64,000 nt of DNA from an uncultured Thermoplasmata archaeon (GCA_963708255.1 CAVPSE010000005.1:94062-158061), one strand, 5' to 3'. Counted from the first letter of the stretch, positions 2,572 through 16,381 are shown. The notes: a model not told the origin generated them from the letters alone. A program made the numbers and translations.

Positions 2572-2667
2572 CGACCTCCCCGCCCTCCGCCCGGTCCGAA
2601 CGACAGGCCCCAGGGCTGTCGGCGGTCCCGCGCCAGATTGAAGAGTCGCGGAACCGTTCCCCCGGCC

Positions 2668-3198
2668 ATGCTGGGGGCGCGGGACCGGCAGTACCTCAGC
2701 GTCCTGCTCCCGATCGGGATCGTTGCCGCCGTTCTGATCGACGGGGCCGTCTTCGCGGCCATCGGCTGGCCCGCGCCGCCCGTCCAGCCAGGGGGTCCCT
2801 GCGAAGGGTGTTCCGTGGCCCCCATCGGCACCTCTCTGGCACTCGGTCAACCCCTCGAACAGACCAGCGGTCCGAACCACTGGTACAACTTCACCGTCCA
2901 GTCGGCCGGGGGTGGCATCACTCTGGGCGACATCTCCTTTCAGCTGGTGACCGCGACGGGCGCGGTGGTCGCTCCCGGGGGAAGTTGGTCACTGGTCGTT
3001 CTCGATCTGGAAGGATCGCTCGCTGGAACCTATTCCCTCAGCACGGGCTCGTGGGTCTCGGGGGGCGGTGCGGCCATCACGAGCGGCCAGACCTTCGTCC
3101 TGGACGCGGTGTCGACGGACCTCAGCGGACAGGGCGAGGTCCTGAACGTCATCGGCACCGGCCCGTTCGGGGGCTCGATCAGCGTCGGCATCCCCTGA
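2668..3198 (+). CDS. Membrane-anchored secreted protein with a pilin-like beta domain (paralog 1)
   Basis: N-terminal TM helix and a Ser/Gly/Thr-rich ectodomain. Shares GTS(L/I)AL, HWYN-TV-SA, VTATG and G-W-SGG with the next gene. Confidence 0.65.
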   Translation: MLGARDRQYLSVLLPIGIVAAVLIDGAVFAAIGWPAPPVQPGGPCEGCSVAPIGTSLALGQPLEQTSGPNHWYNFTVQSAGGGITLGDISFQLVTATGAVVAPGGSWSLVVLDLEGSLAGTYSLSTGSWVSGGGAAITSGQTFVLDAVSTDLSGQGEVLNVIGTGPFGGSISVGIP

Positions 3199-3252: not shown

Positions 3253-3798
3253 GTGGGCCTCTCTCCGCGGGGCCGGTGGCTGGTGATCATCGCCTCGCTG
3301 GCGGTCGTGCTCGCTGTTTCGCTCGTCGGAGTCCTGACGGCCGCGCAGGGGAACCTGTTCTGGCTGGGCGGCGCCTCGTCCCCCGCGTGCGGGGGGTCGC
3401 CGGACGGGTCGGGCACCCCGCTCGGGACCTCCATCGCCCTCAGCACGCCGTCGGAGCAGGTCTGGGGCCATCACCACTGGTACAACTCCACGGTCGAATC
3501 CGCCGTCCCTCAGCTCGCCTGGAGCGAGATGGGCATTCAGGTCGTCACGGCCACCGGATCCAACGTCACCCCGGCGAGCGACTGGGCTGGCGGGGTCCTC
3601 AGTAGCACCGGCTCTTGGGTGGCGTTCTTCGGGTTCTCCAACGGAACCTGGATCTCGGGGGGCGAGACCGCCGTCGAGAGCTCGCAATCCCTCGTCATCG
3701 ACTCGGGCACGACGGGGCTGGCGGGCGTGGGGGACCAACTGATGGTGACCTTCCACTCGGCATGCCTCCAGGGCTCCATCTCCGTCAACATTCCCTGA
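3253..3798 (+). CDS. Membrane-anchored secreted protein with a pilin-like beta domain (paralog 2)
   Basis: Tandem paralog of 2668-3198 with the same motifs and a GSISVxIP C-terminus. Confidence 0.65.
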   Translation: MGLSPRGRWLVIIASLAVVLAVSLVGVLTAAQGNLFWLGGASSPACGGSPDGSGTPLGTSIALSTPSEQVWGHHHWYNSTVESAVPQLAWSEMGIQVVTATGSNVTPASDWAGGVLSSTGSWVAFFGFSNGTWISGGETAVESSQSLVIDSGTTGLAGVGDQLMVTFHSACLQGSISVNIP

Positions 3799-3909: not shown

Positions 3910-4248
3910 GTGCCTGAGGGGGGAGCCGACGCCGGGCGGACGATCGTGCTGGGCGAGCGCGAGCTTGCCATCGGTTTCCGTCTGATCGGCTTCAAGGACG
4001 TGGTCCAAGTGACCCCCCAGACGGCCGCCTCGGAGTTTCGCCGCGTCATGGAGTCCGGGGAGTTCAGCCTCGTCGTAGCCAGCCAGTCGGTGGCGAAGGC
4101 CCTCACGGAGACCCAGCGTCTCCACGCAGAGTCGTCGCTCAAGCCCCTGGTGGTGTTCGTCCCGTCCCCCGACGGGACGTACGAGATCGAGAGCATCAGC
4201 ACCCTCGCGAAGAGGGTGCTCGGCGTGTCCCTGGCGATGCCAGGGTAG
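3910..4248 (+). CDS. atpF: A/V-type ATP synthase subunit F
   Basis: IVLGERELAIGFRLIG...LAKRVLGV, directly upstream of subunit A. TTAAATA box at about 3879. Confidence 0.9.
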   Translation: MPEGGADAGRTIVLGERELAIGFRLIGFKDVVQVTPQTAASEFRRVMESGEFSLVVASQSVAKALTETQRLHAESSLKPLVVFVPSPDGTYEIESISTLAKRVLGVSLAMPG

Positions 4249-4259
4249 GGAGAAGTTCC

Positions 4260-7200
4260 ATGGGAGTCGTCGCACGGGTCAGCGGTCCGGTCGTCGTCGC
4301 CGAAGGCCTCGAGGGCGCCAAGATGTTCGACGTCGTCCGCGTCGGCACGCTGGGGCTCGTGGGGGAGATCATCCGGCTGGTCGGCGAGACGGCCACGGTG
4401 CAGGTCTACGAGGACACCACGGGGATCCGCCCGGGCGACCCGGTGGAGAACACCGGCCAGGCGCTCTCGGTGGAGCTGGGTCCGGGGCTGCTCAAGTCCA
4501 TCTACGACGGGGTCCAGCGCCCCTTGGACGTCCTCAAGAAGAACCTCGGGGACTTCATCACCCGCGGTTTCGTCGCCCCGCCTCTCGACGAGAAGACGGT
4601 CTGGGAGTTCACAGCCATCGCCAAACCGGGTGCCGATGTCACCGGCGGGGCGGTCCTCGGGACCGTCCAGGAGACGCCGCTCATCCTGCACAAGATCATG
4701 GTGCCCCCGGGCATGGCGGGGAAGCTCGAGGAGCTGAAGAGCGGCTCCTACACGATCCGCGACCCCATCGGCTCGATCCGCACCTCGACCGGGAAGGTCC
4801 CGGTGTTCCTCTCGCAGAGGTGGGTCGTCCGTATCCCCCGCCCGGTCCAACAGAAGCTCGCGCCGGGCATCCCGCTGCTCACCGGCCAGCGTGTCATCGA
4901 CACGTTCTTCCCCATCGCGAAGGGCGGGACAGCGTGTATCCCCGGGCCGTTCGGGAGCGGCAAGTGTGTCTCGGGTGACACCCCCATGGCTCTCCGCGAT
5001 GGCGGTATCGTCCCCATCGCCAACCTGTACGACTGGGCTCGCCAGCATGGCGAGGTCACTATCGATGGGTCCGACGAGTGGTACCAGCTCCGGGACCCGA
5101 TCCGGCTCTATTCGATGGTCGGCGACCGTGTGGTCCCGAGCGAGAGTTGGACCTTCTACAAGGGGCGCAGTGACTCTCTCGTCCGCGTACGCACCCGGAG
5201 CGGCCGAAGCGTTCGGCTCACCCCGATCCACCGCCTCTTCACGTTCGGTCCCGACGGGGGGATGCGGGAGACGATGGCGAAGGACCTCCGCCCGGGAGAC
5301 TACGTCGCATCCGTACGGCAGCTTCCCGACGGGGGCATCGATGCCAAGCTCGATATCCAGCTCCCCAAGCTCCAACGCCGCGGCAAGCCCATCCGGGTAC
5401 CGGAACGGATGACCCCCGATCTGGCCGAGTACCTCGGCCTGTACATCGCCGAAGGGTACCTCCGTGGCGGCCAGACGGTCGTCTTCACCAACTCAGACCC
5501 AGAGCTCCGCTCACGGTTCCTCGCCCTCACCCGGACCCTGTTCGGCATAGAAGGCGTCGAGGAGTTCCAACCCGGTAAGACCCCCAACGTCCTCGTCCAC
5601 AGCGTCTCTATCCTGAGGCTCATGGTGGCGCTGGGCTGCGGCGGCAACGGACATCAGAAGAGGGTTCCCCCGTCGGTCCTCGCGGCGCGATCCGAGGCCG
5701 TCGGTGCGTTCCTCCGTGGCTACTTCCTCGGGGACGGTACCATGTCGAAGCGGGAGGTGGAGTTCTGCACCGCCAGCTCCGAGCTCCAGACGGGGCTCGT
5801 CTACGCGCTCAGCCGGTTCCGCGTGGTCTCGACCATGGGCCGGCGGACCGTCGATGGCACACCGTACTACCGCGTCTTTGTCCGGGGGATCGAAAGCCTG
5901 GGTCGCCTCGCCTCGGCGATGGGATCGGATGCCCCGAAGGTCGAGCGGATCCGGGAGTACGTCCGTGCCCAGCGCTCGACCTACACGGCCACCGATGTCG
6001 TCCCGCTGTCGCCCGAGGCGATCGAACGTCTGTATCGGGACAACTTCCGATACCGCGACCTGCTCGCCGAACGGATCGAGATCCACAACTACATCGGCAA
6101 CCGGGAGCGGATGAGCGTCCCCACCTTCCAGAGGATGATGGACAGCCCCCGTTCGTTCGGGAACCCCGAGATGAGCGAGGCGGAGCCGGAGGCGTACCGG
6201 CTCTCGGGGCTCGTTGACTGGTTCTACTGCGACGAGATCGTCGAGGTCGAGCCCGAGACCCAGGGACCGTACGACGTGTACGATGTCTCGCTCCCCGACT
6301 TCGGGGCAAATTTCGTCGGCGGCCACGGCGGGATGCTCCTCCACAACACCGTCACGCAGCAACAGCTCGCGAAGTGGGCCGACTCGGACGTGGTCGTCTA
6401 CGTCGGCTGCGGGGAACGCGGGAACGAGATGACGGAGGTGCTGGCCACCTTCCCGAACCTCCAGGACCCCAAGTCCGGCCGCCCGCTCATGGAGCGGACG
6501 ATCCTCATCGCCAACACCTCCAACATGCCGGTGGCCGCCCGGGAGGCGAGCGTGTATACCGGGATCACGATCGCCGAGTACTACCGCGACATGGGCTACG
6601 ACGTCGCCTTGATGGCCGACTCCACGAGCCGGTGGGCCGAGGCGATGCGGGAGATCTCCGGCCGTCTCGAGGAGATGCCGGGCGAAGAAGGGTACCCCGC
6701 GTACCTGGGCCGTCGTATCGCCGAGTTCTACGAACGCGCGGGGCGGGTTATCACCGTCTCCCCCGAAGGGCGGCCGGGCTCCGTCACCGTCGTCGGGGCC
6801 GTTTCGCCGCCGGGCGGGGACTTCGCCGAGCCGGTGAGCCAGAACACCTTGCGGGTCGCCCGGGTATTCTGGGCCCTGGACGCCTCGCTCGCCTCGCGCC
6901 GCCACTTCCCCTCGATCAACTGGCTGCAGAGCTACTCGCTCTACGTCGGCGACATCGAGCCATGGTACCGGGCGAACATCGCGAAGGACTGGGTCGCCCT
7001 CCGCCAGAAGGCGCTGGAGGTCCTCCAGAAGGAGTCCGAGCTCCAGGAGATCGTGCAGCTCGTGGGCGCGGATGCACTCCCCGAGCGGGAGAAGGCGGTT
7101 CTGGACGTCGCGCGGATGCTGCGGGAGGACTACCTGCAGCAGTCGGCCTACGACGACGTGGACACGTACACCTCCATCGCGAAGCAATACCGCATGCTGA

Positions 7201-7397
7201 AGACGCTCCTTCTGTTCGGCGACAAGGAACAGGAGGCGATCGGTCGGGGCGCCCGGACGTCGGACCTCCAGAAGCTCCCTGTCCGCGCGAAGCTCTCGAG
7301 GATGAAGTGGATCCCTGAGAAGGAGCTGAACGCCCAGTTCGACTCTCTGGAGAACGAGATGAGCCAGGCGGTTTCGGCCCTGGCCGGGAGCACGTAG
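4260..7397 (+). CDS. atpA: A/V-type ATP synthase subunit A containing an intein
   Basis: GPFGSGK|intein|TVTQ, YVGCGERGNEM, EEMPGEEGYPAYL. The extein is 584 aa. Confidence 0.97.
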   Translation: MGVVARVSGPVVVAEGLEGAKMFDVVRVGTLGLVGEIIRLVGETATVQVYEDTTGIRPGDPVENTGQALSVELGPGLLKSIYDGVQRPLDVLKKNLGDFITRGFVAPPLDEKTVWEFTAIAKPGADVTGGAVLGTVQETPLILHKIMVPPGMAGKLEELKSGSYTIRDPIGSIRTSTGKVPVFLSQRWVVRIPRPVQQKLAPGIPLLTGQRVIDTFFPIAKGGTACIPGPFGSGKCVSGDTPMALRDGGIVPIANLYDWARQHGEVTIDGSDEWYQLRDPIRLYSMVGDRVVPSESWTFYKGRSDSLVRVRTRSGRSVRLTPIHRLFTFGPDGGMRETMAKDLRPGDYVASVRQLPDGGIDAKLDIQLPKLQRRGKPIRVPERMTPDLAEYLGLYIAEGYLRGGQTVVFTNSDPELRSRFLALTRTLFGIEGVEEFQPGKTPNVLVHSVSILRLMVALGCGGNGHQKRVPPSVLAARSEAVGAFLRGYFLGDGTMSKREVEFCTASSELQTGLVYALSRFRVVSTMGRRTVDGTPYYRVFVRGIESLGRLASAMGSDAPKVERIREYVRAQRSTYTATDVVPLSPEAIERLYRDNFRYRDLLAERIEIHNYIGNRERMSVPTFQRMMDSPRSFGNPEMSEAEPEAYRLSGLVDWFYCDEIVEVEPETQGPYDVYDVSLPDFGANFVGGHGGMLLHNTVTQQQLAKWADSDVVVYVGCGERGNEMTEVLATFPNLQDPKSGRPLMERTILIANTSNMPVAAREASVYTGITIAEYYRDMGYDVALMADSTSRWAEAMREISGRLEEMPGEEGYPAYLGRRIAEFYERAGRVITVSPEGRPGSVTVVGAVSPPGGDFAEPVSQNTLRVARVFWALDASLASRRHFPSINWLQSYSLYVGDIEPWYRANIAKDWVALRQKALEVLQKESELQEIVQLVGADALPEREKAVLDVARMLREDYLQQSAYDDVDTYTSIAKQYRMLKTLLLFGDKEQEAIGRGARTSDLQKLPVRAKLSRMKWIPEKELNAQFDSLENEMSQAVSALAGST
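4965..6347 (+). mobile_element. Intein with LAGLIDADG homing endonuclease (461 aa) in the P-loop of AtpA
   Basis: Begins CVSGDT, has block B LTPIHRLF, LAGLIDADG-like LGLYIAEG and LRGYFLGDG, block F VYDVSL, and ends LHN followed by Thr. Confidence 0.95.
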
Positions 7398-8822
7398 ATG
7401 GCGCAGTCAAAGCCCTCGGGCCGCGGCGTACCCAAGGAGGACGTCCCCATCGACTACCGGACCATCGACCGGATCACCGGCCCGTTGCTATTCGTCAAGG
7501 ATGTGGCGAACGCGGCCTACGGCGAGATGGTCGAGATCTCGCTCCCTGACGGCACCCGCCGTCAGGGCCAGGTGCTGGACTCCCGGAAGGGGCTCGCCAT
7601 CGTCCAGGTGTTCGGCCCGACGATGAGCATGAACCTGACTCAGACGTCTGTCAAGTTCCTGGGCGAGGTCGCGACCCTGCCGGTCTCCGACGAGATGCTC
7701 GGCCGCGTGTTCAACGGGCTCGGCGAACCCCGGGACGGCGGTCCGAAGATCATCAGCGAACAGCGGCTCGAGATCACGGGGAACGCGATGAACCCGTACT
7801 CGCGCGAGGAGCCTAGCGAGTTCATCCAGACGGGGCTCTCGAACATCGATGTGATGAACACCCTCGTCCGGGGGCAGAAGCTCCCGATCTTCTCCGGCGC
7901 GGGTCTGCCGCACAACCAGCTCGCGGCCCAGATCGTCCGGCAGGCGAAGCTGCGGGACTCCTCGGAAAGTTTCGCGGTCGTCTTCGCCGCCATGGGGATC
8001 ACCAGCGAGGAAGCGAACTACTTCCTCCGCGAGTTCGAACAGACCGGCGCCCTCGAGCGGACCGTCGTGTTCCTCAACCTGTCGTCGGACCCGTCAATGG
8101 AGCGGGTCATCACCCCGCGGATGGCGCTCACCACCGCCGAGTACCTCGCCTACGAGAAGGACATGCACATCCTCGTGGTGCTCACGGACATGACCAACTA
8201 CTGCGAGGCGCTCCGGGAGATCGCGAGCGCCCGGGAAGAGGTGCCGGGACGCCGCGGCTACCCGGGATACCTCTACACCGACCTGGCGACGCTCTATGAG
8301 CGGGCCGGAAAGATCCAGGGCCGGAAGGGGTCGATCACCCAGCTGCCGATCCTGACGATGCCGGCGGACGACATCACCCACCCGATCCCCGACCTGACCG
8401 GCTACATCACCGAGGGCCAGATCGTGGCGAGCCGGGACCTGCAGCGCCGGGGCGTCTACCCCCCCATCGACGTGCTGCTCTCCCTCTCGCGTCTGATGAA
8501 CCAGGGGATCGGCAAGGGCCGCACCCGGGAGGACCACCGGGGGGTCGCCGACCAGTTGTACGCGAGCTACGCGACGGGGAAGGACCAGCGGGCCTTGTCG
8601 GCGATCGTCGGGGAGGAGGCGCTCAGCGCCACCGACCGGATCTACCTCAAGATCGCCGAGCGGTTCGAGAACGAGTTCGTCAACCAGCGCCCGGACGAGG
8701 ATCGGACCATCGATCAGAGCCTCGCCATCGGCTGGGACATCCTGGCGGACCTTCCCGACTCGGAGCTGAAGCGGATCAAGCCCGAGATGATCGAGAAGTA
8801 CCGCCCGAAGCGGGCCGCCTAG
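7398..8822 (+). CDS. atpB: A/V-type ATP synthase subunit B
   Basis: [48 protein letters not shown]. Confidence 0.97.
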
Positions 8823-8841
8823 ACGAGCCGGGGGAACGGCC

Positions 8842-9482
8842 ATGGCGCAGGAGAACATCCGGCCCACGCGGCTCGAGCTCCTGCGAACGCGCCGGAGGAT
8901 CGTCCTGGCGAAGAAGGGGCTCAACCTTCTGAAGCTGAAGCGCTCCGCCCTCATCGTGGAGTTCTTCGCCCTCTCGAAAGAGGCGATGGCACTTCGGGGG
9001 GACCTCCAGAAGAAGATCGGCCGGGGTACGAGTCGATCCGGGTCGCCGAGATGATGGAGGGGCCGACCCGCCTCGAGAACATCTCCATGCTCCTCCCCGA
9101 CCTCGCGCCGGTCAAGGTCCAGACGAAGAACGTCATGGGCGTCCGAACCCCCCGGGTCGACGCGGGCTCCTATTCGCCGGTCTCGGTGCCGGCGCTCCTC
9201 GACCTGCCCACCTCGGTCCACGAGTCGATCATCCAGTTCCAGGGGATCTACCAGATCGTGCTCGACATCGCCGAGAAGGAGAACGCGCTACGGCGCCTCC
9301 TCCACGAGATCGAGCGGACCAAGCGGCGGGCGAGCGCCATCGAGAACGTCCTGATCCCGCGGCTCCAGGCCACGGTGCGGTACATCAAGTTCCAGTTCGA
9401 CGAGCTGGAGCGGGACGCCTTCAGCATGCTGAAGACCGTCAAGAAGAAAATGGAGGCGGAGGCGAATGCTGCGGTTCAATAG
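8842..9482 (+). CDS. atpD: A/V-type ATP synthase subunit D, frameshift near 9025
   Basis: RPTRLEL...LLKLKR in frame 1; KNVMGV and EIERTKRRASAIENVLIP in frame 2. Confidence 0.9.
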
Positions 9483-9588
9483 GGCCCAGAAGAACTTCCT
9501 CTGGGTGATGCGGATCTCCCTCGCCGCCAAGATCCTCGGGCTCGTCGCCCTCATCGCGATCCTTGCGTATCTCGGAGCAGTAAGATGA
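9466..9588 (+). CDS. 40-aa single-TM micropeptide inside the ATP synthase operon
   Basis: MLRFNRAQKNFLWVMRISLAAKILGLVALIAILAYLGAVR. GGAGG RBS upstream, overlaps the atpD stop, and its TGA overlaps the atpH ATG (ATGA). Confidence 0.7.
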   Translation: MLRFNRAQKNFLWVMRISLAAKILGLVALIAILAYLGAVR

Positions 9589-9956
9589 GCGAACCAATGG
9601 GAGCCGTGCCCGCCGCGAACGTCGAAGCGCTCCGCCGACTGAAGGAGGTCGAGAACGCCTGGGAGACGAAGCTCGCCCAGACCCGCTCGGAGGTCGCCGC
9701 GCGCGTCTCGATCGCCCGGGAGGCGGCCGAGAAGGCGATCCAGGCGGCCCGCGCGGAGATGGACCGTCTCCGGGAGGCGCGCCTCACGGAGGCCCGGGCC
9801 GCGGCCCAGATCGAGGCGGACAAGATCCTCGCCGACGGGCAGCGGGCGGCCCAGACGATCGCCTCCGCCGGTTCCAAGGGGGTCGCCGCCGCCCAGACGA
9901 AGATCCTCGCCGCCGTGCTCGGCGAGTTCCGGAGCAGCTCCTCGGACGGAAAGTAA
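9585..9956 (+). CDS. atpH: A-type ATP synthase peripheral stalk subunit H (G-like)
   Basis: Ala/Glu/Arg-rich coiled coil (EALRRLKEVE...) immediately before subunit I. Confidence 0.8.
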   Translation: MSEPMGAVPAANVEALRRLKEVENAWETKLAQTRSEVAARVSIAREAAEKAIQAARAEMDRLREARLTEARAAAQIEADKILADGQRAAQTIASAGSKGVAAAQTKILAAVLGEFRSSSSDGK

Positions 9957-9957
9957 C

Positions 9958-11952
9958 GTGTCGTTCCTCCGCCCCGTCTCCATGACCAAGGTCAGCCTCG
10001 TCGGGCTGAAGGAGGACCGGGAGCGGATCGTCGGCGCCATCCACGATCTGGGGGTCTTCCAGGTGGAGCCGGTCGCGAAGGAGACCCTCGAGTTCGTGGC
10101 CCCCGAGCACGGGAGCGACCAGGCCCGCGCCGTGGCGGACCAGATGATCCGGTTCCGGGGCCTCCGGTCGGCGCTTCCGACGAGCCCCCCCGGCCCCCCG
10201 CAGGCGTTCGCGGACCTCCCTGCCATCCTGGCGGCGACCGGCCGCGTCCCCATCGACGACGAGGTCGGCGCCCTCAAGCGCGAGGAGGACTCGCTCCTGA
10301 CCGAGCGCAAGTCCCTCACCGACCAGATCGATCTCCTCACCCGGTACTCGTTCTACCAGGACCGGCTCGAGCTCCTGTTCGGGAGGTCGATCGTCTCATT
10401 GTTCGGCGAGGCGAAGCCCGAGAAGTTCGAGGAGTTCCGTTCCCAGCTTCCGGCGCTCGCCCACATCCTGACCGGCCCGGTCGGCGCCGACACGGGGTTC
10501 GTCCTCAGCGTGCCGGTCCCCGATGCCGACACGGTCGGCCGCCTGGCCCAGCGTCTTGGCATTCCTCTCACCGCCGCCCCGCGCCTCACCGGCACCCCGT
10601 CGGAGGCCCGGCCGCCGCTCGAGGCGCGCCGCACCGCCGTGGACGCGCGTCTCGGGGAGATCCGTCACCGGCTCGGCGAGATCTCGGCCCAGTGGTTCGC
10701 GACGGTGCTCGCCCTCGAGGAGGCGCTCACCATCGAGAACCGCAAGTTCGAGGCGTACGGTCGGTTGGGCGCCGGCGAGCGGACCTTCACGATCGAGGGA
10801 TGGGTCCCGAAGCGCGACCTGCCCCGCCTCGAGGAGGCGGTCGGAGCGGCCTCCGGGGGCAGCGCCCAGATCTTCCCCCTCGCGACCACCGAGCGGGCCC
10901 CCACCCTCATGGACAACCCCTCCGGGGTCCGGAAGTACGAGTTCTTCATCCGGTTCTACGCGATCCCGCAGGCCGACGAGTGGGACCCGACCTGGGTCTT
11001 CGCGCTCGCGTTCCCGCTGTTCTTCGGCCTCATGCTCGGGGACGTGGGCTACGGGCTCGTGATCCTCCTGGTCTCCCTCTGGTTCATCGCCGGGTTCCCG
11101 GGGGCCGCCAAGCTCCCGAAGGCCCCGAAGAACATGATCAAAACGATCGTCTCGCCGTGGGCGATGCGGGAGATCGCCTACTGCCTCGTGCCGGGATGCC
11201 TCCTCGCGATCGGGGCCGGCGTGCTCTTCGACTCGTTCTTCGGGTTCCACTTCTACCCGAACCCGATCTTCGACCCGATCGCCAAGATCGCCCAGCTCCT
11301 CCTCCTCGCCGGCTACATCGGCGTGGCGATGGTGACCATGGGGTTCGCCCTCGGCGCCCTGAAGGAGTACTACCACCACCACCGCCGCGGCGTCGTTGGC
11401 AAGATCGGGGGCATCGTGCTCACCTGGGGGATCGCCCTGTTCGGCCTATCTGTCCTCCGCAGCCAGACCAGTTTCACCGCCGACCCCGGCTACACCATCG
11501 GGCTCGCATTGACCATCGTCGGGGTCCTGCTGCTCATCGGGGGGGAGGGCGTGATGATCGGGGGCCTCGGGATCATCGAGGTCGTGAGCCACATCCTCTC
11601 CTACACCCGGCTGATCGGGATCCTCCTCGCGTCGGTGATCCTCGCGCTCGTGATCAACGAGATCGCCCAGGGCGCGATCTACGGCGGGGCGATCTTCGGG
11701 ATCATCGGCGGCGTCGTGCTGCTGATCGTTGGCCAGGGGTTCAACATCATCATCGGCGTCTTCGAGCCGGGGATCCAAGGGGCGCGTCTTCTGTTCGTGG
11801 AGAATTTCTCGAAGTACTGCGAGGGGAACGGCCGTCCGTTCCGCCCCCTGCGTTCCAGCCGGAAGTACACCATCGCGTCGGCCCCGTCCACGACCGCCCG
11901 GTCGGTCGCCCCGCTCCCCTCGGGCGCCCCCGCGCGCCCGTCGGGGTCCTAG
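9958..11952 (+). CDS. atpI: A/V-type ATP synthase subunit I (a)
   Basis: FFGLMLGDVGYG, SHILSYTRL, GARLLFVENFSKY; multiple TM segments. Confidence 0.95.
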   Translation: MSFLRPVSMTKVSLVGLKEDRERIVGAIHDLGVFQVEPVAKETLEFVAPEHGSDQARAVADQMIRFRGLRSALPTSPPGPPQAFADLPAILAATGRVPIDDEVGALKREEDSLLTERKSLTDQIDLLTRYSFYQDRLELLFGRSIVSLFGEAKPEKFEEFRSQLPALAHILTGPVGADTGFVLSVPVPDADTVGRLAQRLGIPLTAAPRLTGTPSEARPPLEARRTAVDARLGEIRHRLGEISAQWFATVLALEEALTIENRKFEAYGRLGAGERTFTIEGWVPKRDLPRLEEAVGAASGGSAQIFPLATTERAPTLMDNPSGVRKYEFFIRFYAIPQADEWDPTWVFALAFPLFFGLMLGDVGYGLVILLVSLWFIAGFPGAAKLPKAPKNMIKTIVSPWAMREIAYCLVPGCLLAIGAGVLFDSFFGFHFYPNPIFDPIAKIAQLLLLAGYIGVAMVTMGFALGALKEYYHHHRRGVVGKIGGIVLTWGIALFGLSVLRSQTSFTADPGYTIGLALTIVGVLLLIGGEGVMIGGLGIIEVVSHILSYTRLIGILLASVILALVINEIAQGAIYGGAIFGIIGGVVLLIVGQGFNIIIGVFEPGIQGARLLFVENFSKYCEGNGRPFRPLRSSRKYTIASAPSTTARSVAPLPSGAPARPSGS

Positions 11953-13026
11953 AGCTTCGGGACCACCAGAAGCGCTTCGAGCGCGGCCGGCGTGAGGCCG
12001 TAGAGCTTGCCGTAGATGATGCGCCGCAGGTCCGAACGCTCCAGCTCGGCCAGGAACAGGTAGGAGAACGCCACGGCGATGCTGAGCGGGTAGGTCCTCA
12101 ATCGCTTGAGCTCGCGAACGGCCCGGTCGCGGGTGAGGGAGACCTCGTAGCCGGTCAGGGTCCGGTTCTGCTGGTAGAGGGCGTTCCCCTCCACGAGGGT
12201 GGGGAACCGGTTCGAGAGGGTGTTGACGAGGTCGACGACCGTCCGGCCGCTGTAGGCGTCCTCGAACGCGCTCCTCGGGAGGTCCCCGCCCTCGACGAAC
12301 CGCGTCACCGCGGCCTCCAGGGGGAGCTCGGAGTCCTTCGCCTTGAGGAACAAGAGGGCGTTGCGGATGTCGATCTCGCCCCGGAGGAACGGACCGGACC
12401 ACCCATTCGTCCCCCTGGAAGTACTGCAGGGAGGCGAGCGCGGTCTGGTAGTACTGGCGGTCCAAGGCCTGCAGGAGCGGAAAGATGTCCTTCGTCCGGT
12501 TGTAGTCGTCGAGCAGGCCGAGGAGGGCGGTCCCGTAGCCGAACCGGACCAGCGCCTGGGCGACCGCTTCCACCGTCGGCTGCTGGAGCAGGACCCGAAA
12601 GTCGTCGATGGTCATGGAGCCGGCGAACAGCCCCGCCGGGATGTCCCGGGACGACACGAGGAACGGCTCCGTATCGGCCAGCGGGCGACCCTGGGCCTTC
12701 GCCGACAGGATGAGCCCGATGTTCTGGACGTCCCAGCGGCGCAGGTACGCGCCGATGATCGGCTTGCCCGCGAACGGGGAGGACTCGAGCGCGATCTTGT
12801 TGCGACGGACCGTGGTGCGGTTGATGGCGATCTCCAGGAGCGGGGCGCCCTGGTAGGAGGCAGCGCTGGCGTTGATCTCGGGGCCGTACGGGCTCGCCTC
12901 GAGGGTCTTGATGATCTCGTTGACGTCCGCGGCGGCCACGAGGGCGGGGTACGACTCCTTCGGCAGGAACTCCGGGAAATGGACCAGGAGCCGGCCCAAG
13001 GCGCTCGCGTACGTCGAGCTCGACAA
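11949..13026 (-). CDS. atpC: A/V-type ATP synthase subunit C (d/AC39), frameshift near 12385
   Basis: YASALGRL, YLRRWDVQNI, LDRQYY, then EIDIRN...YLFLAELERSDLRRI in the shifted frame. Confidence 0.85.
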
Positions 13027-13033
13027 GGGCCTC

Positions 13034-13588
13034 CTAGGGGAGGAGCGAACGGACGTCGTCCTCGCGGAGCCGCAACAGCTCGTCGAACGACAGGTTGAGC
13101 CGCCGGGAACCGTCCGGGGTCTCGGCGATCAGCCCCCCGAGGATCGCGACCGGGTGGTCCGGGTCGAAGTTCTTGCCCGCCACCGTCCGAAGGGTGGCCG
13201 CGTCCTCGGCCCGGCCGGTGATGTGGAGCTGCTTGCCCAGCCGGTCGGTCGCGAACGCGACCATCCGCTTCAGGGCGGCCGGGTACTCCGGGTCCTCGGT
13301 GTACTTCGATAGGGACGACCGGACCATGGCGAGGGCCTGCGCGCTCTGCTTCTCCCGGGTCTCGTAGACGAGCTTCCTCGCCTGGAGCTTCGCGGAGGCG
13401 AGCTTCTGGGCGCGTTCGCGCGCCGCATCGGTCTCGGCGAGGCGCTGGCCCTCGTCGACCAGCTGCCGGACCTTATGCTCGCGCTCATCGAGGATCGCCT
13501 TCTCCTGGGCGTCGCCGAGCTTGCGCTCGTCGTCGAGCTCGCGCTCGGCGCGGAGTCGGATCTCCTCGATCAGCCGCTCCAGGGACAT
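13034..13588 (-). CDS. atpE: A/V-type ATP synthase subunit E
   Basis: MSLERLIEEI, a coiled coil, and ILGGLIAETPDG...NLSFD; lies between K and C. Confidence 0.88.
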   Translation of the reverse strand: MSLERLIEEIRLRAERELDDERKLGDAQEKAILDEREHKVRQLVDEGQRLAETDAARERAQKLASAKLQARKLVYETREKQSAQALAMVRSSLSKYTEDPEYPAALKRMVAFATDRLGKQLHITGRAEDAATLRTVAGKNFDPDHPVAILGGLIAETPDGSRRLNLSFDELLRLREDDVRSLLP

Positions 13589-13601
13589 GGGGCGGTGCGG
13601 C

Positions 13602-13832
13602 TCAGAGGATGTGGAGGAGCAGGATCGCGCCCAGCACGAATCCGAGGATCCAGAGCGTCTCGGGGATCACGAAGAAGATCAGCACCTGGCCGAACTTCTC
13701 CGGCTTCTCGGCGATGATCCCCATTCCCGCGGCGCCGATCCCGGACTGGGCCATGCCGGTTCCGATGAGACCGCCCGCGATCGCGATGCCGGCAGCGACG
13801 GCGAGGATCGCCTCTCCAATATCGTATACCAT
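13602..13832 (-). CDS. atpK: A-type ATP synthase proteolipid subunit K (c), single hairpin
   Basis: GTGMAQSGIGAAG, IAEKPEKFG, IPETLWILG. TTATATA box at about 13867-13873 on the minus strand. Confidence 0.95.
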   Translation of the reverse strand: MVYDIGEAILAVAAGIAIAGGLIGTGMAQSGIGAAGMGIIAEKPEKFGQVLIFFVIPETLWILGFVLGAILLLHIL

Positions 13833-13995
13833 GAGGGTGTCTCCGGGCCGCGCAGAATGGTCGGGTATATAACGCGAATCTGCCGCCGGGCGGGCCGGTC
13901 CGTCGGGTGACGGGGAGTTCGTCGCTGCCCCGGCGTCGGCCGGCTCTTGTAGCAGGGGCGTCTGGACCCGTCCGGTGGCCCAAGTGACTGAGGAG

Positions 13996-14691
13996 ATGGC
14001 CCAGATCGCGCGTCAGTTGGCCGAGGACCTGGAGCTCACGAGCCCGCCCGTGCAGATCACCTACCTGGACCAGGCCCCTCCCGGGGTCCCCGCTCACCCC
14101 GGCGGCGCGCCGTCGGTCTGCACGTTCTTCGCCGAGGGGCGGTCCTCGCCGTTCTACGCGGCCCTGCCGGAGCACGAAGCCTGCGAGGTCGGGGCGTTCG
14201 TCCTCGGCGTTGCCCCGGAAGGGGAGCTCGGGAAGCGCCTCATGGCGACCATCGGGATGATGCAGTCGGAGGGGTACCTGGCCCCCGGCGAAGAGGCGAA
14301 GATCCCCCGGAACGCCACCCCCCCCAAGTTCGTCGCCTACGGACCCCTCGGAACCCTTCCGATGCCCCCGACCGATGTGCTCCTGTTCGCGAGCCCCAGG
14401 TCCGCCATGCTCGCCATGGAGGCGTCCACCGCCCCCGTTCCCGTCAACGGTCGACCGATGTGCGCGGTCGTTCCAACCCTCCACGCCGGCGCCCCGGTGG
14501 CGGTCTCGGTGGGGTGCGTCGGGTCCCGGATCTTCACCAACATGGGCGACGACACCATGATGGTCGGTATCCGCGGCGACCGCCTGGGTGAGTTCGCCCA
14601 GCGTCTCCGAACGATCCGTTCGGCGAACGCGGCCGTCGGCGCCGAGGATCAGCGTCGCAAGGCGGGCTACACCCCCGCGCGTCGAGGGTAG
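13996..14691 (+). CDS. DUF169 family protein
   Basis: LELTSPPV, SVCTF, HEACEVG, VAYGPL, DVLLF, PMCA, SVGCVGSR; GAGGAG RBS. Confidence 0.8.
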   Translation: MAQIARQLAEDLELTSPPVQITYLDQAPPGVPAHPGGAPSVCTFFAEGRSSPFYAALPEHEACEVGAFVLGVAPEGELGKRLMATIGMMQSEGYLAPGEEAKIPRNATPPKFVAYGPLGTLPMPPTDVLLFASPRSAMLAMEASTAPVPVNGRPMCAVVPTLHAGAPVAVSVGCVGSRIFTNMGDDTMMVGIRGDRLGEFAQRLRTIRSANAAVGAEDQRRKAGYTPARRG

Positions 14692-14695
14692 GGGC

Positions 14696-15175
14696 CTAGG
14701 CGGCCTCGGCCGCCCCGGGGTGGACGGGCTCGTCCGGCTCGCCCGTGAGGCGGACGAGGTACACCAGGAGCAGGAAGGCGGCGAGGTTGCAAAGGTACGC
14801 CCCGAGGCAGATGATGCACAGCCCCTGGATCACGATCAGCTCGAGGTAGGCGAAGTAGACCGAGAGGGCGAGCCCAAGTCCGGAGACGACGGTGACCGCC
14901 TCCAGGTATCGGCGCTTGTAGGTCCGGAAGGCGAGGATGCCGAGGGCGAGCATCACGACATATCCGGCCACTCCGATCGCCCAGTCAGGGATGCCGAACG
15001 TCGTGGTGTGCCCGGAGTTGTCGATCTTGCCACAGGAGACGTACGAGCTGATCGAGCAGACCCCCTGGGCCGAGACGTTGACGGTCTCGTACCAGGCGTA
15101 CGCCGAGAACGCGAGGCCGGCCACCAGAAGCAGGATGGCGAGCGAGTACGCTGTGTCGGCGCGCATGCGAACCAT
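14696..15175 (-). CDS. Vitamin K epoxide reductase (VKOR) family protein
   Basis: CSISSYVSCGKI loop cysteines, FGIP, and a LCIIC CxxC in a TM helix. Confidence 0.88.
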   Translation of the reverse strand: MVRMRADTAYSLAILLLVAGLAFSAYAWYETVNVSAQGVCSISSYVSCGKIDNSGHTTTFGIPDWAIGVAGYVVMLALGILAFRTYKRRYLEAVTVVSGLGLALSVYFAYLELIVIQGLCIICLGAYLCNLAAFLLLVYLVRLTGEPDEPVHPGAAEAA

Positions 15176-15238
15176 GCCAGGTCCTGAGAGGAGCGAGCCG
15201 GGGCACCTACTTTTGGTTTGAGCCCCCGAGGCCCACCG

Positions 15239-16381
15239 TTAGAGGGTATTGTAGTCGGCCGCGACCGACTGGTACTGGGACAGGATGCTCGCCGGTTGTC
15301 CACCGTCCGCTTTCAGCAGGATCGCAGTGAGCATGTACGCATTGGGGCTGATCAGGTCCCACGCCTGGCCGGTCTGGTTGATGACTTGCCCCAGGACCTG
15401 GCTCGGCTGCAGGTTGAGCGGCTGGAGCTGGGAGGGGTCGACGACGCTCCCCGTGTGGACGTACTGGCCCCCGACCACCGCGAACGGGATCCCGTTGGTG
15501 CCTCCGTCGTAGGCACTGATGTACGCCTGGTCGATGCAGCTGGAGGGGGCCGGCGGAACGGTGTTGGTGTCGACGTCCGACTCCAGGATGTGAATCGCCA
15601 CGAAGTTGCTGGTCAACTGGGCGTTGACGAACGAGAGTTCCGGGGTGCTGGGGTACACGTCCCCGGGATTCGAATGGCCGAGCTCGAGACCCTGCACCGT
15701 ACCGAACCGTTCCAGAGCCCAGTAGAACGCCCAGCTCGATGCCGAGCAGTAGGGGCAGCCGATGGAGCCGTAGAAGAAGAACACCGGGTGGCCCCCCGAC
15801 GTCCAGGTCGGGTTACCGCCATACTCTGTCCAGGTCCCGATCGCCCCGTTGGTGGGGAGGGTGTTCCCGGCCGGGGTCAGCGTCGGGCAGCCCCCCGAGA
15901 TCGCCACCACGGCAAAGACGCCCGCGACCGCCAAGCCCACGACGCATCCCATGACCACGGCGTTCCGGTAGATCGTGTTCCACCGTTCCGCCGTCCTGAG
16001 CAGGGCGAAGGCGAGGACGAAGACGGCCACGAGCAGGAGGATGAGCAGGACCGGGTACGCCGGGAGGTACACGCCGACCGGAGATGGGTAGATGTAGGCC
16101 AGCAAGGCCCAAACTCCCACGGCGGGGACCGCGATCCACCCCGCCCGGGCCAGGGTCCACTTCGCACGGCTGTCGAGCTTGCCGGATTTGGCGGCCTTGC
16201 CGCCTTCGGCCCCGCCCCTTCGGGACGCCTTCGAGCGGCGCTGGTAGTAGAGGGCCCGGAGCTGGCGACCCGGCTCGCCGGAGTCCGCCTCGGCGTGGAA
16301 CTCCACGCTCTCGTCCGAGGCGATCCGGTCCCAATCCCAGCCCTTGGAGCGAAGTCGCTCCACGGACTCCCAGTCGACCAT
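15239..16381 (-). CDS. DUF929-like membrane-anchored thioredoxin-fold protein
   Basis: FFYGSIGCPYCSASSWAFYWALERFG, DVYPSTP, GIPF; about 3 TM helices after a soluble N-terminal domain. Confidence 0.8.
   Translation of the reverse strand: MVDWESVERLRSKGWDWDRIASDESVEFHAEADSGEPGRQLRALYYQRRSKASRRGGAEGGKAAKSGKLDSRAKWTLARAGWIAVPAVGVWALLAYIYPSPVGVYLPAYPVLLILLLVAVFVLAFALLRTAERWNTIYRNAVVMGCVVGLAVAGVFAVVAISGGCPTLTPAGNTLPTNGAIGTWTEYGGNPTWTSGGHPVFFFYGSIGCPYCSASSWAFYWALERFGTVQGLELGHSNPGDVYPSTPELSFVNAQLTSNFVAIHILESDVDTNTVPPAPSSCIDQAYISAYDGGTNGIPFAVVGGQYVHTGSVVDPSQLQPLNLQPSQVLGQVINQTGQAWDLISPNAYMLTAILLKADGGQPASILSQYQSVAADYNTL

Follow-up and report, generated by a model that had tools for sequence, protein, structure and literature searches.

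A conserved micropeptide gene between atpD and atpH in Thermoplasmata, a candidate accessory component of the archaeal ATP synthase

Introduction

The A-type ATP synthases of archaea are commonly credited with nine subunits, and AhaG, an oddity of Methanosarcina, has gone unexplained since the 1990s. In a 64,000-nt stretch of DNA from an uncultured Thermoplasmata archaeon (GCA_963708255.1; hereafter, the window), the genes for subunits D and H of this enzyme do not adjoin, and an earlier note on the sequence had placed a 40-aa membrane peptide in the gap between them. Here we ask whether this gap holds a real gene, how widely such a gene is found behind atpD, and whether its product could belong to the ATP synthase.

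A small open reading frame fills the atpD-atpH junction

On the plus strand, the ATPase genes of the window run atpF-A-B-D-x-H-I, and they converge on atpK-E-C on the minus strand (3910-13832; Table 1), with a 4-nt overlap of the ends of atpI (11952) and atpC (11949). At position x, an open reading frame (ORF) with its ATG at 9466-9468 and its TGA at 9586-9588 covers all of the 102 nt (9483-9584) that separate atpD from atpH. It overlaps atpD by 17 nt, the atpD stop TAG being at 9480-9482, and its TGA shares the letters ATGA with the atpH start codon (9585-9587). The arrangement described in the earlier note, i.e., an ORF that is preceded by GGAGG, starts within the last atpD codons, ends in an ATGA overlap with atpH and fills the gap completely, was borne out throughout, and GGAGG proved to be present in two copies. 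Six-frame searches found one copy of the micropeptide in the window's own genome.

Table 1 Features at and around the atpD-atpH junction of the window.
Feature	Position	Strand	Basis or remark
atpF	3910-4248	+	ATPase locus gene
atpA, 1045 aa with intein	4260-7397	+	ATPase locus gene
atpB	7398-8822	+	ATPase locus gene
atpD (subunit D), frameshift near 9021-9054 giving two frames	8842..9482	+	PF01813 on both pieces
Two GGAGG, Shine-Dalgarno-like	9452-9456 and 9458-9462	+	Within the acidic tail codons of atpD
Micropeptide gene, 40 aa	9466..9588 (stop included)	+	ORF; member of the type-2 family behind atpD
Basic N-terminal segment, residues 1-16 (R3, R6, K9, R16)	9466..9513	+	Translation; predicted cytoplasmic
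Hydrophobic transmembrane helix, about residues 17-38, K22 near the cytoplasmic end	9514..9579	+	Hydropathy, AlphaFold2
ATGA overlap of micropeptide stop and atpH start	9585..9588	+	Sequence
Probable atpH (peripheral-stalk subunit H), 123 aa	9585..9956	+	TIGR02926 AhaH, E 7.6e-5, sub-cut-off
atpI (membrane stator subunit I/a), 664 aa	9958..11952	+	PF01496, E 6.5e-17
atpK, atpE, atpC	13832-11949	-	Converge on the plus-strand ATPase genes

The probable atpH had no Pfam match and is kept downstream of the micropeptide gene in relatives, and the product of atpI is 50-54% identical to 11 same-genus proteins. The frameshift in atpD leaves the junction with atpH untouched; the two pieces match model positions 1-48 and 61-196 of PF01813, and in relatives atpD is intact (213-215 aa). 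A second gene of the locus, atpC (11949-13026, minus strand), is likewise split by a frameshift, near 12340-12400, with both pieces matching one Pfam model. The window's genome comprises 2.25 Mb in 6 contigs and is rated 63.7% complete, and the two splits look like assembly indel errors rather than two broken essential genes.

Predicted architecture of the micropeptide

The micropeptide carries a net charge of +4 across its first 20 residues, and its best 19-residue Kyte-Doolittle mean is 2.31. AlphaFold2, given a 43-row alignment, modelled one helix across residues 6-36 with a mean pLDDT of 91.7, in agreement with the basic N-terminus and single transmembrane (TM) helix that had been claimed from the sequence. 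Among 29 members from the genus, A, V, L, I, F, M, W or C fill 77% of the TM columns, and a Lys or Arg is conserved near the cytoplasmic end of the helix (K22 in the window). The genus motif A-V-R-R-F-R-x-V aligns to the N-terminal basic segment; the window's copy is degenerate there, with R-F-N-R-A-Q-K-N-F replacing A-V-R-R-F-R. By the positive-inside rule, the N-terminus would be cytoplasmic and the last 2-4 residues would lie outside.

Conservation within the genus

Junctions were fetched via atpD from 30 same-genus loci, the window's own genome among them. At all 30 (28/28 without L022 and L024, the loci from the unpublished genomes G110 and G019) the ORF begins 10-22 nt inside atpD and terminates where atpH starts, with no stop in the micropeptide frame, and at 29 of them it spans 39-46 aa from an ATG, GTG or TTG. 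For L033 and L037 this length is reached only if an internal start is used, as the TTG listed upstream gives 64-65 aa; L011 keeps the conserved residues in frame but has no canonical start ahead of them. A Shine-Dalgarno-like motif lies 4-20 nt from the start at 28 of the 30 loci, and the two without one (L011 and L037) are both loci at which the listed start is doubtful. Stop and start codons overlap or abut at most junctions, in the forms ATGA, TGATG, TAATG and TAGTG. The best 19-residue hydropathy ranges from 1.96 to 2.75, and the consensus reads A-V-R-R-F-R-x-V-x-x-x-S-L-A-V-K, followed by the hydrophobic stretch and then by G-G.

A single-sequence six-frame search with the window's peptide gave weak matches (E 0.015-0.11) in G019, G021 and G007, each of them a 41-aa ORF in the atpD-atpH slot. 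Elsewhere in the genus, G181 has a divergent 59-aa single-helix ORF, and in G103 (locus L204) the micropeptide gene is absent and atpH overlaps atpD.

Conservation beyond the genus

Within the same family, the ORF is present in three further genera (g16, g17 and g18) and absent from both loci of a fourth (g15), in which atpH begins 1 or 13 nt after atpD. The loci from which the gene has been cleanly lost (L040 and L041 of g15, and L204 of G103) are natural knock-outs for comparison. Three other families of the class (f20, f21 and f10; 33-53% GC) have an ORF of 36-60 aa in the same slot, followed by atpH, and its product shows (L/I)(R/K)(R/K)F-x-(R/K)(I/V)(R/K) and then a TM helix. A test for an ORF plus hydrophobic window was positive at the atpD stop in 48 of 50 loci (L008-L057). 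Applied at random positions, the same test was positive at 1.3% in the window and 2.1% in the same-genus loci; rates of 6-13% were obtained in the other locus sets, which contain real membrane genes. The expectation, raised by the earlier note, that a small ORF would be conserved at the atpD-atpH interval of Thermoplasmata relatives was thus confirmed, both in 29 of the 30 same-genus loci and in other families.

To see where in the genome such sequences occur, a profile of 43 members (A1), the window's peptide included, was searched in six frames against 201 whole genomes of the class. There were 49 matches at E up to 0.01, in 48 genomes, more than 20 of which had contributed nothing to the profile. 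All except two matches (47/49) are found immediately behind atpD and on its strand, or 45 of 47 when the unpublished genomes G110 and G088 are set aside. The two elsewhere are the weakest, one (E 0.007) containing four stops and the other (E 0.008) lying inside a 257-aa frame. By family, the matches fall in f1 (20/25), f10 (8/8), f20 (16/22) and f21 (2/2), with one doubtful match in f23 (1/2) and none in any other family of the class among the 201 genomes. The window's peptide, itself a row of the profile, scored E 7.4e-7.

We refer to these sequences as the type-2 family. Its ORFs lie between atpD and atpH, overlapping or abutting both, and encode 36-63 aa with a basic juxtamembrane motif and one TM helix, and the window's ORF has every one of these features. 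The carriers are the window's genus and family, Thermoplasma-like families and two others. Judged by these searches, the family is confined to the position directly behind atpD, in archaea with atpD-then-atpH operons.

An HMM search of 1.84 billion representative proteins returned 102 clusters at E up to 0.001, all of 33-59 aa and none in a fused form; one of these relatives, a 56-aa member from a Thermoplasma species, bears the name 'hypothetical protein [Thermoplasma sp.]' at NCBI. For the window's peptide, the ESM Atlas gave no clusters other than those called 'hypothetical protein', none scoring above 0.81, and Pfam (E up to 0.1) and NCBIfam held no relevant family. Sequence searches of the PDB with the profiles of this family and of the AhaG-type family described below gave nothing credible (best E 0.022, to ribosomal protein S12). 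Annotation pipelines often miss the micropeptide gene or leave it without a name.

Coding signal

Could a chance open frame in a GC-rich, non-coding spacer account for the ORF? A 40-codon open frame is common in DNA of about 65% GC, and one alternative frame is also open across the trimmed ORF interior in 22 of 29 loci, so that openness of the frame is by itself weak evidence in this GC-rich genus. A count of alternative-frame stops over the full span is partly trivial, since that span includes the atpD stop and the ATGA. The other observations point away from chance: length, motif and hydrophobicity are conserved, the ORF is found in genomes of only 33-40% GC, the genome-wide profile matches fall at atpD, and the random-position rate is as low as 1.3-2.1%. 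In the genus alignment, GC at the three codon positions is 0.72/0.42/0.92 for the micropeptide ORF and 0.63/0.35/0.94 for atpD, and a GC3 of 0.92 likewise argues for coding. The comparative data refute a chance ORF so far as sequence analysis can, and we give that explanation next to no credence.

The micropeptide evolves as fast as the accepted subunit H: mean pairwise amino-acid identity is 0.44 for the former and 0.41 for the latter, and pN/pS in the genus is 0.88 and 0.85, respectively, with 0.25 for atpD. Few individual residues of the micropeptide are tightly constrained at a pN/pS of about 0.88, a value that comes from a saturated comparison and is matched by atpH. Because pN/pS is saturated at the divergence of the genus, it is uninformative here and provides no evidence against function. 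Taken together, the gene is real and conserved and is strictly linked to atpD, the linkage being observed directly, and its product is modelled with one helix.

AhaG-type genes behind atpD in other archaea

To survey the position behind atpD more widely, 39 further genomes of the phylum (37 families) were sampled at one locus apiece. A small single-helix ORF was present at the atpD stop in 20 of these, two of the window's type and 18 of a second type (hereafter, AhaG-type) marked by F-D-T-P-E-K-K-A-K, in variant forms at some loci, and by a Gly in the helix that hardly varies. At the phylum loci with the AhaG-type ORF, no ATPase gene follows atpD. When named genomes were scanned with an atpD alignment, 80 loci were obtained, 35 of which have a small single-helix ORF after atpD, and 33 of these look AhaG-type. 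Carriers include Methanosarcina and relatives, ANME-2, Methanothrix, Methanomassiliicoccales, other Thermoplasmata and one member of the Archaeoglobi; no AhaG-type ORF was found at the 16 haloarchaeal or the 4 Poseidoniales loci, and none that was convincing at the Methanomicrobiales loci. Among relatives of the window's family, in the same order and elsewhere in the class, AhaG-like ORFs occur in f4 and f23, f3 has an ORF of the same architecture, and f2 has none. A small single-helix gene behind subunit D is therefore widespread, the AhaG-type alone accounting for 33/80 named archaeal and 18/39 phylum loci.

The start of the AhaG-type ORF lies between -49 and +88 nt from the atpD stop, and the family signature is P-E...A-R-L...W-I-S-L-L-M..L-G, with the nearly invariant Gly. 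No Pfam or NCBIfam model matched this family, and databases mostly name its proteins 'hypothetical protein'. The Methanosarcina ORFs of this type are AhaG, as indicated by their place directly after ahaD, by the fit of their size and tryptic peptide to a published description, and by the name of a database cluster. They encode 55 aa (6.24-6.26 kDa) with one very hydrophobic tryptic peptide, which fits what passages of PMC4350412 say of AhaG of M. mazei, the tenth gene of ahaHIKECFABDG and directly after ahaD. The cluster 'ATP synthase subunit G [Methanosarcina sp. 795]' shares 80% identity with the query, an ORF from M. hadiensis. According to a table in PMC3087415, ahaG adjoins ahaD in Methanothermobacter as well. 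The list of canonical operon genes on which the earlier note had relied (A, B, C, D, E, F, H, I and K) was thus incomplete, as it omits AhaG, the tenth gene directly after ahaD.

These data bear on a reading in which the ORF would serve only as a translational bridge, with ribosomes passing across it from atpD to atpH and the peptide a functionless by-product. The conserved overlaps at both ends and the pN/pS of about 0.88 speak in favour of such a bridge. A bridge has no need, however, for a conserved basic motif and a 20-residue hydrophobic helix maintained from 33 to 73% GC, and the small AhaG-type gene is the last in its operon, with no coupling target behind it. Moreover, coupling needs no bridge, since in genomes that lack the ORF atpH begins 1-13 nt after atpD or overlaps it. 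We consider this reading quite improbable and favour a peptide that is itself functional.

Several loci from this survey stood apart. Three bins labelled Bifidobacteriaceae, Lachnospiraceae and Faecalibacterium (L112, L121 and L173) contain an archaeal atpD with, behind it, an AhaG-like ORF that is nearly the same as in loci labelled Thermoplasmata and Methanoplasma; the contigs are probably from gut Methanomassiliicoccales that were wrongly binned. L083 (G356, f61) represents a third arrangement, atpD then atpH with the membrane peptide absent: atpD is followed by an 89-aa soluble-looking ORF and then by a 114-aa H-like coiled-coil ORF. In L199 (G206), a 128-aa 'ORF' of repeated M-P-R-R-R-A-G-T-T at regular spacing, about 180 nt downstream of atpD, looks like a translated direct-repeat array behind the ATPase operon, possibly a CRISPR.

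Relationship to AhaG and history of the operon

The micropeptide and AhaG are alike in position and architecture. Both genes lie directly downstream of that for subunit D on the same strand (in the window, with the 17-nt overlap), both products measure 40-60 aa and consist of a polar N-terminal part followed by one TM helix at the C-terminus, and neither is matched by a family model. They differ in sequence and in setting: the window's family lacks the AhaG signature and has its own motif (A-V-R-R-F-R...S-L-A-V-K), nothing follows AhaG in its operon whereas the micropeptide precedes atpH and atpI, and the N-terminal part of AhaG is net acidic whereas that of the micropeptide is +4. Alignment of the two families with hhalign gave probabilities of 20.7% (17 rows) and 5.4% (44 rows), and HMM cross-scores between them were 10 bits or less, with medians (2.2 and 1.1 bits) that do not reach the 95th percentile for shuffled sequences (2.5 bits). 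Homology on the ground of cross-scores above those of shuffled sequences was considered and rejected, as such scores reflect the common polar-then-hydrophobic order.

In the window's group, atpD is itself diverged, with R-R-A/S-x-A-I-E-N in place of the common R-R-V-N-A-L-E, and it is nearer to the atpD of Thermoplasma-like archaea (E 1e-36) than to that of same-order relatives (E 1e-15). Passages of PMC6863869 describe a 'V-type-like' operon lineage shared horizontally among acidophiles, with Thermoplasmatales as the proposed donor, and count nine subunits; the small gene goes unmentioned in those passages, and the article's figures and supplements might show one. Acid-mine 'plasmas' and T. 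acidophilum are stated, in a passage of PMC3750248, to be without an AhaG orthologue. This statement is true by sequence; by position and architecture, a counterpart exists. The Thermoplasma-type operon, reportedly devoid of AhaG, thus holds a diverged counterpart in the same spot. The simplest history would be that the micropeptide arose from an AhaG-like gene and diverged along with its operon, a scenario for which we see about even chances.

Proposed role of the micropeptide

We think it reasonably probable that this is a coding gene for a single-pass membrane micropeptide, translationally coupled to its neighbours, that acts as an accessory subunit or as an assembly or stabilising factor of the ATP synthase membrane sector and descends from an AhaG-like ancestor. 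Ribosomes finishing atpD would start the micropeptide via its start codon and the Shine-Dalgarno-like motifs in the last atpD codons, and the overlap of its stop with the atpH start would keep its production in step with that of atpD and atpH. The peptide may act in the membrane sector; analogy with other small membrane proteins suggests packing against subunit I, which is present in single copy, as the most plausible arrangement. Prediction of a complex between the micropeptide (A1) and subunit I (A5; residues 325-640) scored 0.00 and counts neither way. The losses in g15 and G103 point to an accessory rather than a core role.

Among small stabilising peptides, KdpF and V-ATPase subunit e are known analogues. 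KdpF, which is operon-encoded, about 30-40 aa long and has one helix, packs against the large membrane subunit of a P-type ATPase; the analogy is one of mechanism only, KdpF belonging to a bacterial P-type system and having no sequence relation to the micropeptide. Subunit e of the eukaryotic V-ATPase Vo (Vma9 / ATP6V0E) has about 70-80 aa and two TM helices, and the micropeptide, which is likewise small and hydrophobic, would resemble it as an accessory to the membrane sector in a rotary V/A-type ATPase. AtpI/UncI and AtpZ, larger multi-pass proteins encoded at the start of bacterial F-type operons, share with it that they are small operon-encoded membrane proteins outside the canonical subunit set, and AtpI is held to aid c-ring assembly. 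In Pfam, the window's micropeptide showed no similarity to the families of subunit e, AtpI/UncI or AtpZ, and it is modelled with one helix, compared with two or more in those proteins.

Our searches of the literature on archaeal ATP synthases and Thermoplasma operons found no published description of an atpD-atpH micropeptide. The proposal in the earlier note of an undescribed accessory subunit stands as regards a conserved, operon-bound single-pass peptide; given AhaG of Methanosarcina, a small atpD-linked membrane protein is not wholly undescribed. What is already known is the uncharacterised AhaG kind, and what appears new, by sequence comparison, is the diverged atpD-atpH family. The note's other suggestion, a c-ring assembly factor, drew no support, as nothing found points to the c-ring in particular.

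Alternatively, the micropeptide may be a real membrane peptide whose function is unrelated to the ATP synthase, such as a membrane-stress or regulatory peptide that rides on a highly expressed operon. The losses in g15 and G103, in which the operon is retained, would suit a passenger of this sort. The genome-wide search speaks against it, with its matches directly behind atpD and two exceptions that look spurious, as does the fact that the micropeptide remains next to atpD where the operon has been rearranged and in genomes whose GC contents differ widely. The same place is, in addition, held by the separate AhaG family in other archaea. We therefore regard a function unrelated to the enzyme as improbable, albeit the most serious of the alternatives.

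A further alternative assigns the helix to subunit H, as a membrane anchor joined to it by programmed frameshifting at the ATGA. The model is subunit b of F-type enzymes, in which a TM helix is followed by a long Ala-rich coiled coil; the micropeptide helix and the Ala-rich coiled coil behind it resemble that order, and the ATGA overlap is present. The junction, however, varies among loci (4-nt overlap, 1-nt overlap, gaps of 3-8 nt) and places the two genes in different relative frames, no fused form occurs among the 102 public clusters of 33-59 aa, and AhaG-type relatives have no atpH behind them. With a variable junction and no fused public clusters, we rejected fusion with subunit H and judge such an anchor very improbable.

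A bolder version of the accessory-component reading is that AhaG, as carried by methanogens and many Thermoplasmatota, and the diverged atpD-atpH form are one ancient family, a stoichiometric tenth subunit of the membrane sector that every preparation and structure has overlooked. On this view, the diverged form would be an adaptation of the operon variant that passages of PMC6863869 link with habitats that are acidic or under high pressure; it might, for instance, seal or stabilise the interface of subunit I and the c-ring. We offer this tentatively and think it somewhat unlikely as a whole. The old question of the place of AhaG in the enzyme becomes testable in several cultivable organisms.

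Other features of the window

The intein of atpA (4260-7397) contains a LAGLIDADG homing-endonuclease domain (PF14890, PF14528). Upstream of the ATPase genes, two adjacent paralogous ORFs (2638-3198 and 3253-3798; 186 and 181 aa) each have an N-terminal hydrophobic segment, end in …GSISVGIP and …GSISVNIP, respectively, and belong to no Pfam family. Beyond the minus-strand genes, a DUF169 protein is encoded at 13975-14691, and a VKOR-family membrane protein (PF07884) lies beside a DUF929 protein (PF06053) at 14696-16381 (minus strand), possibly as a disulfide-forming pair.
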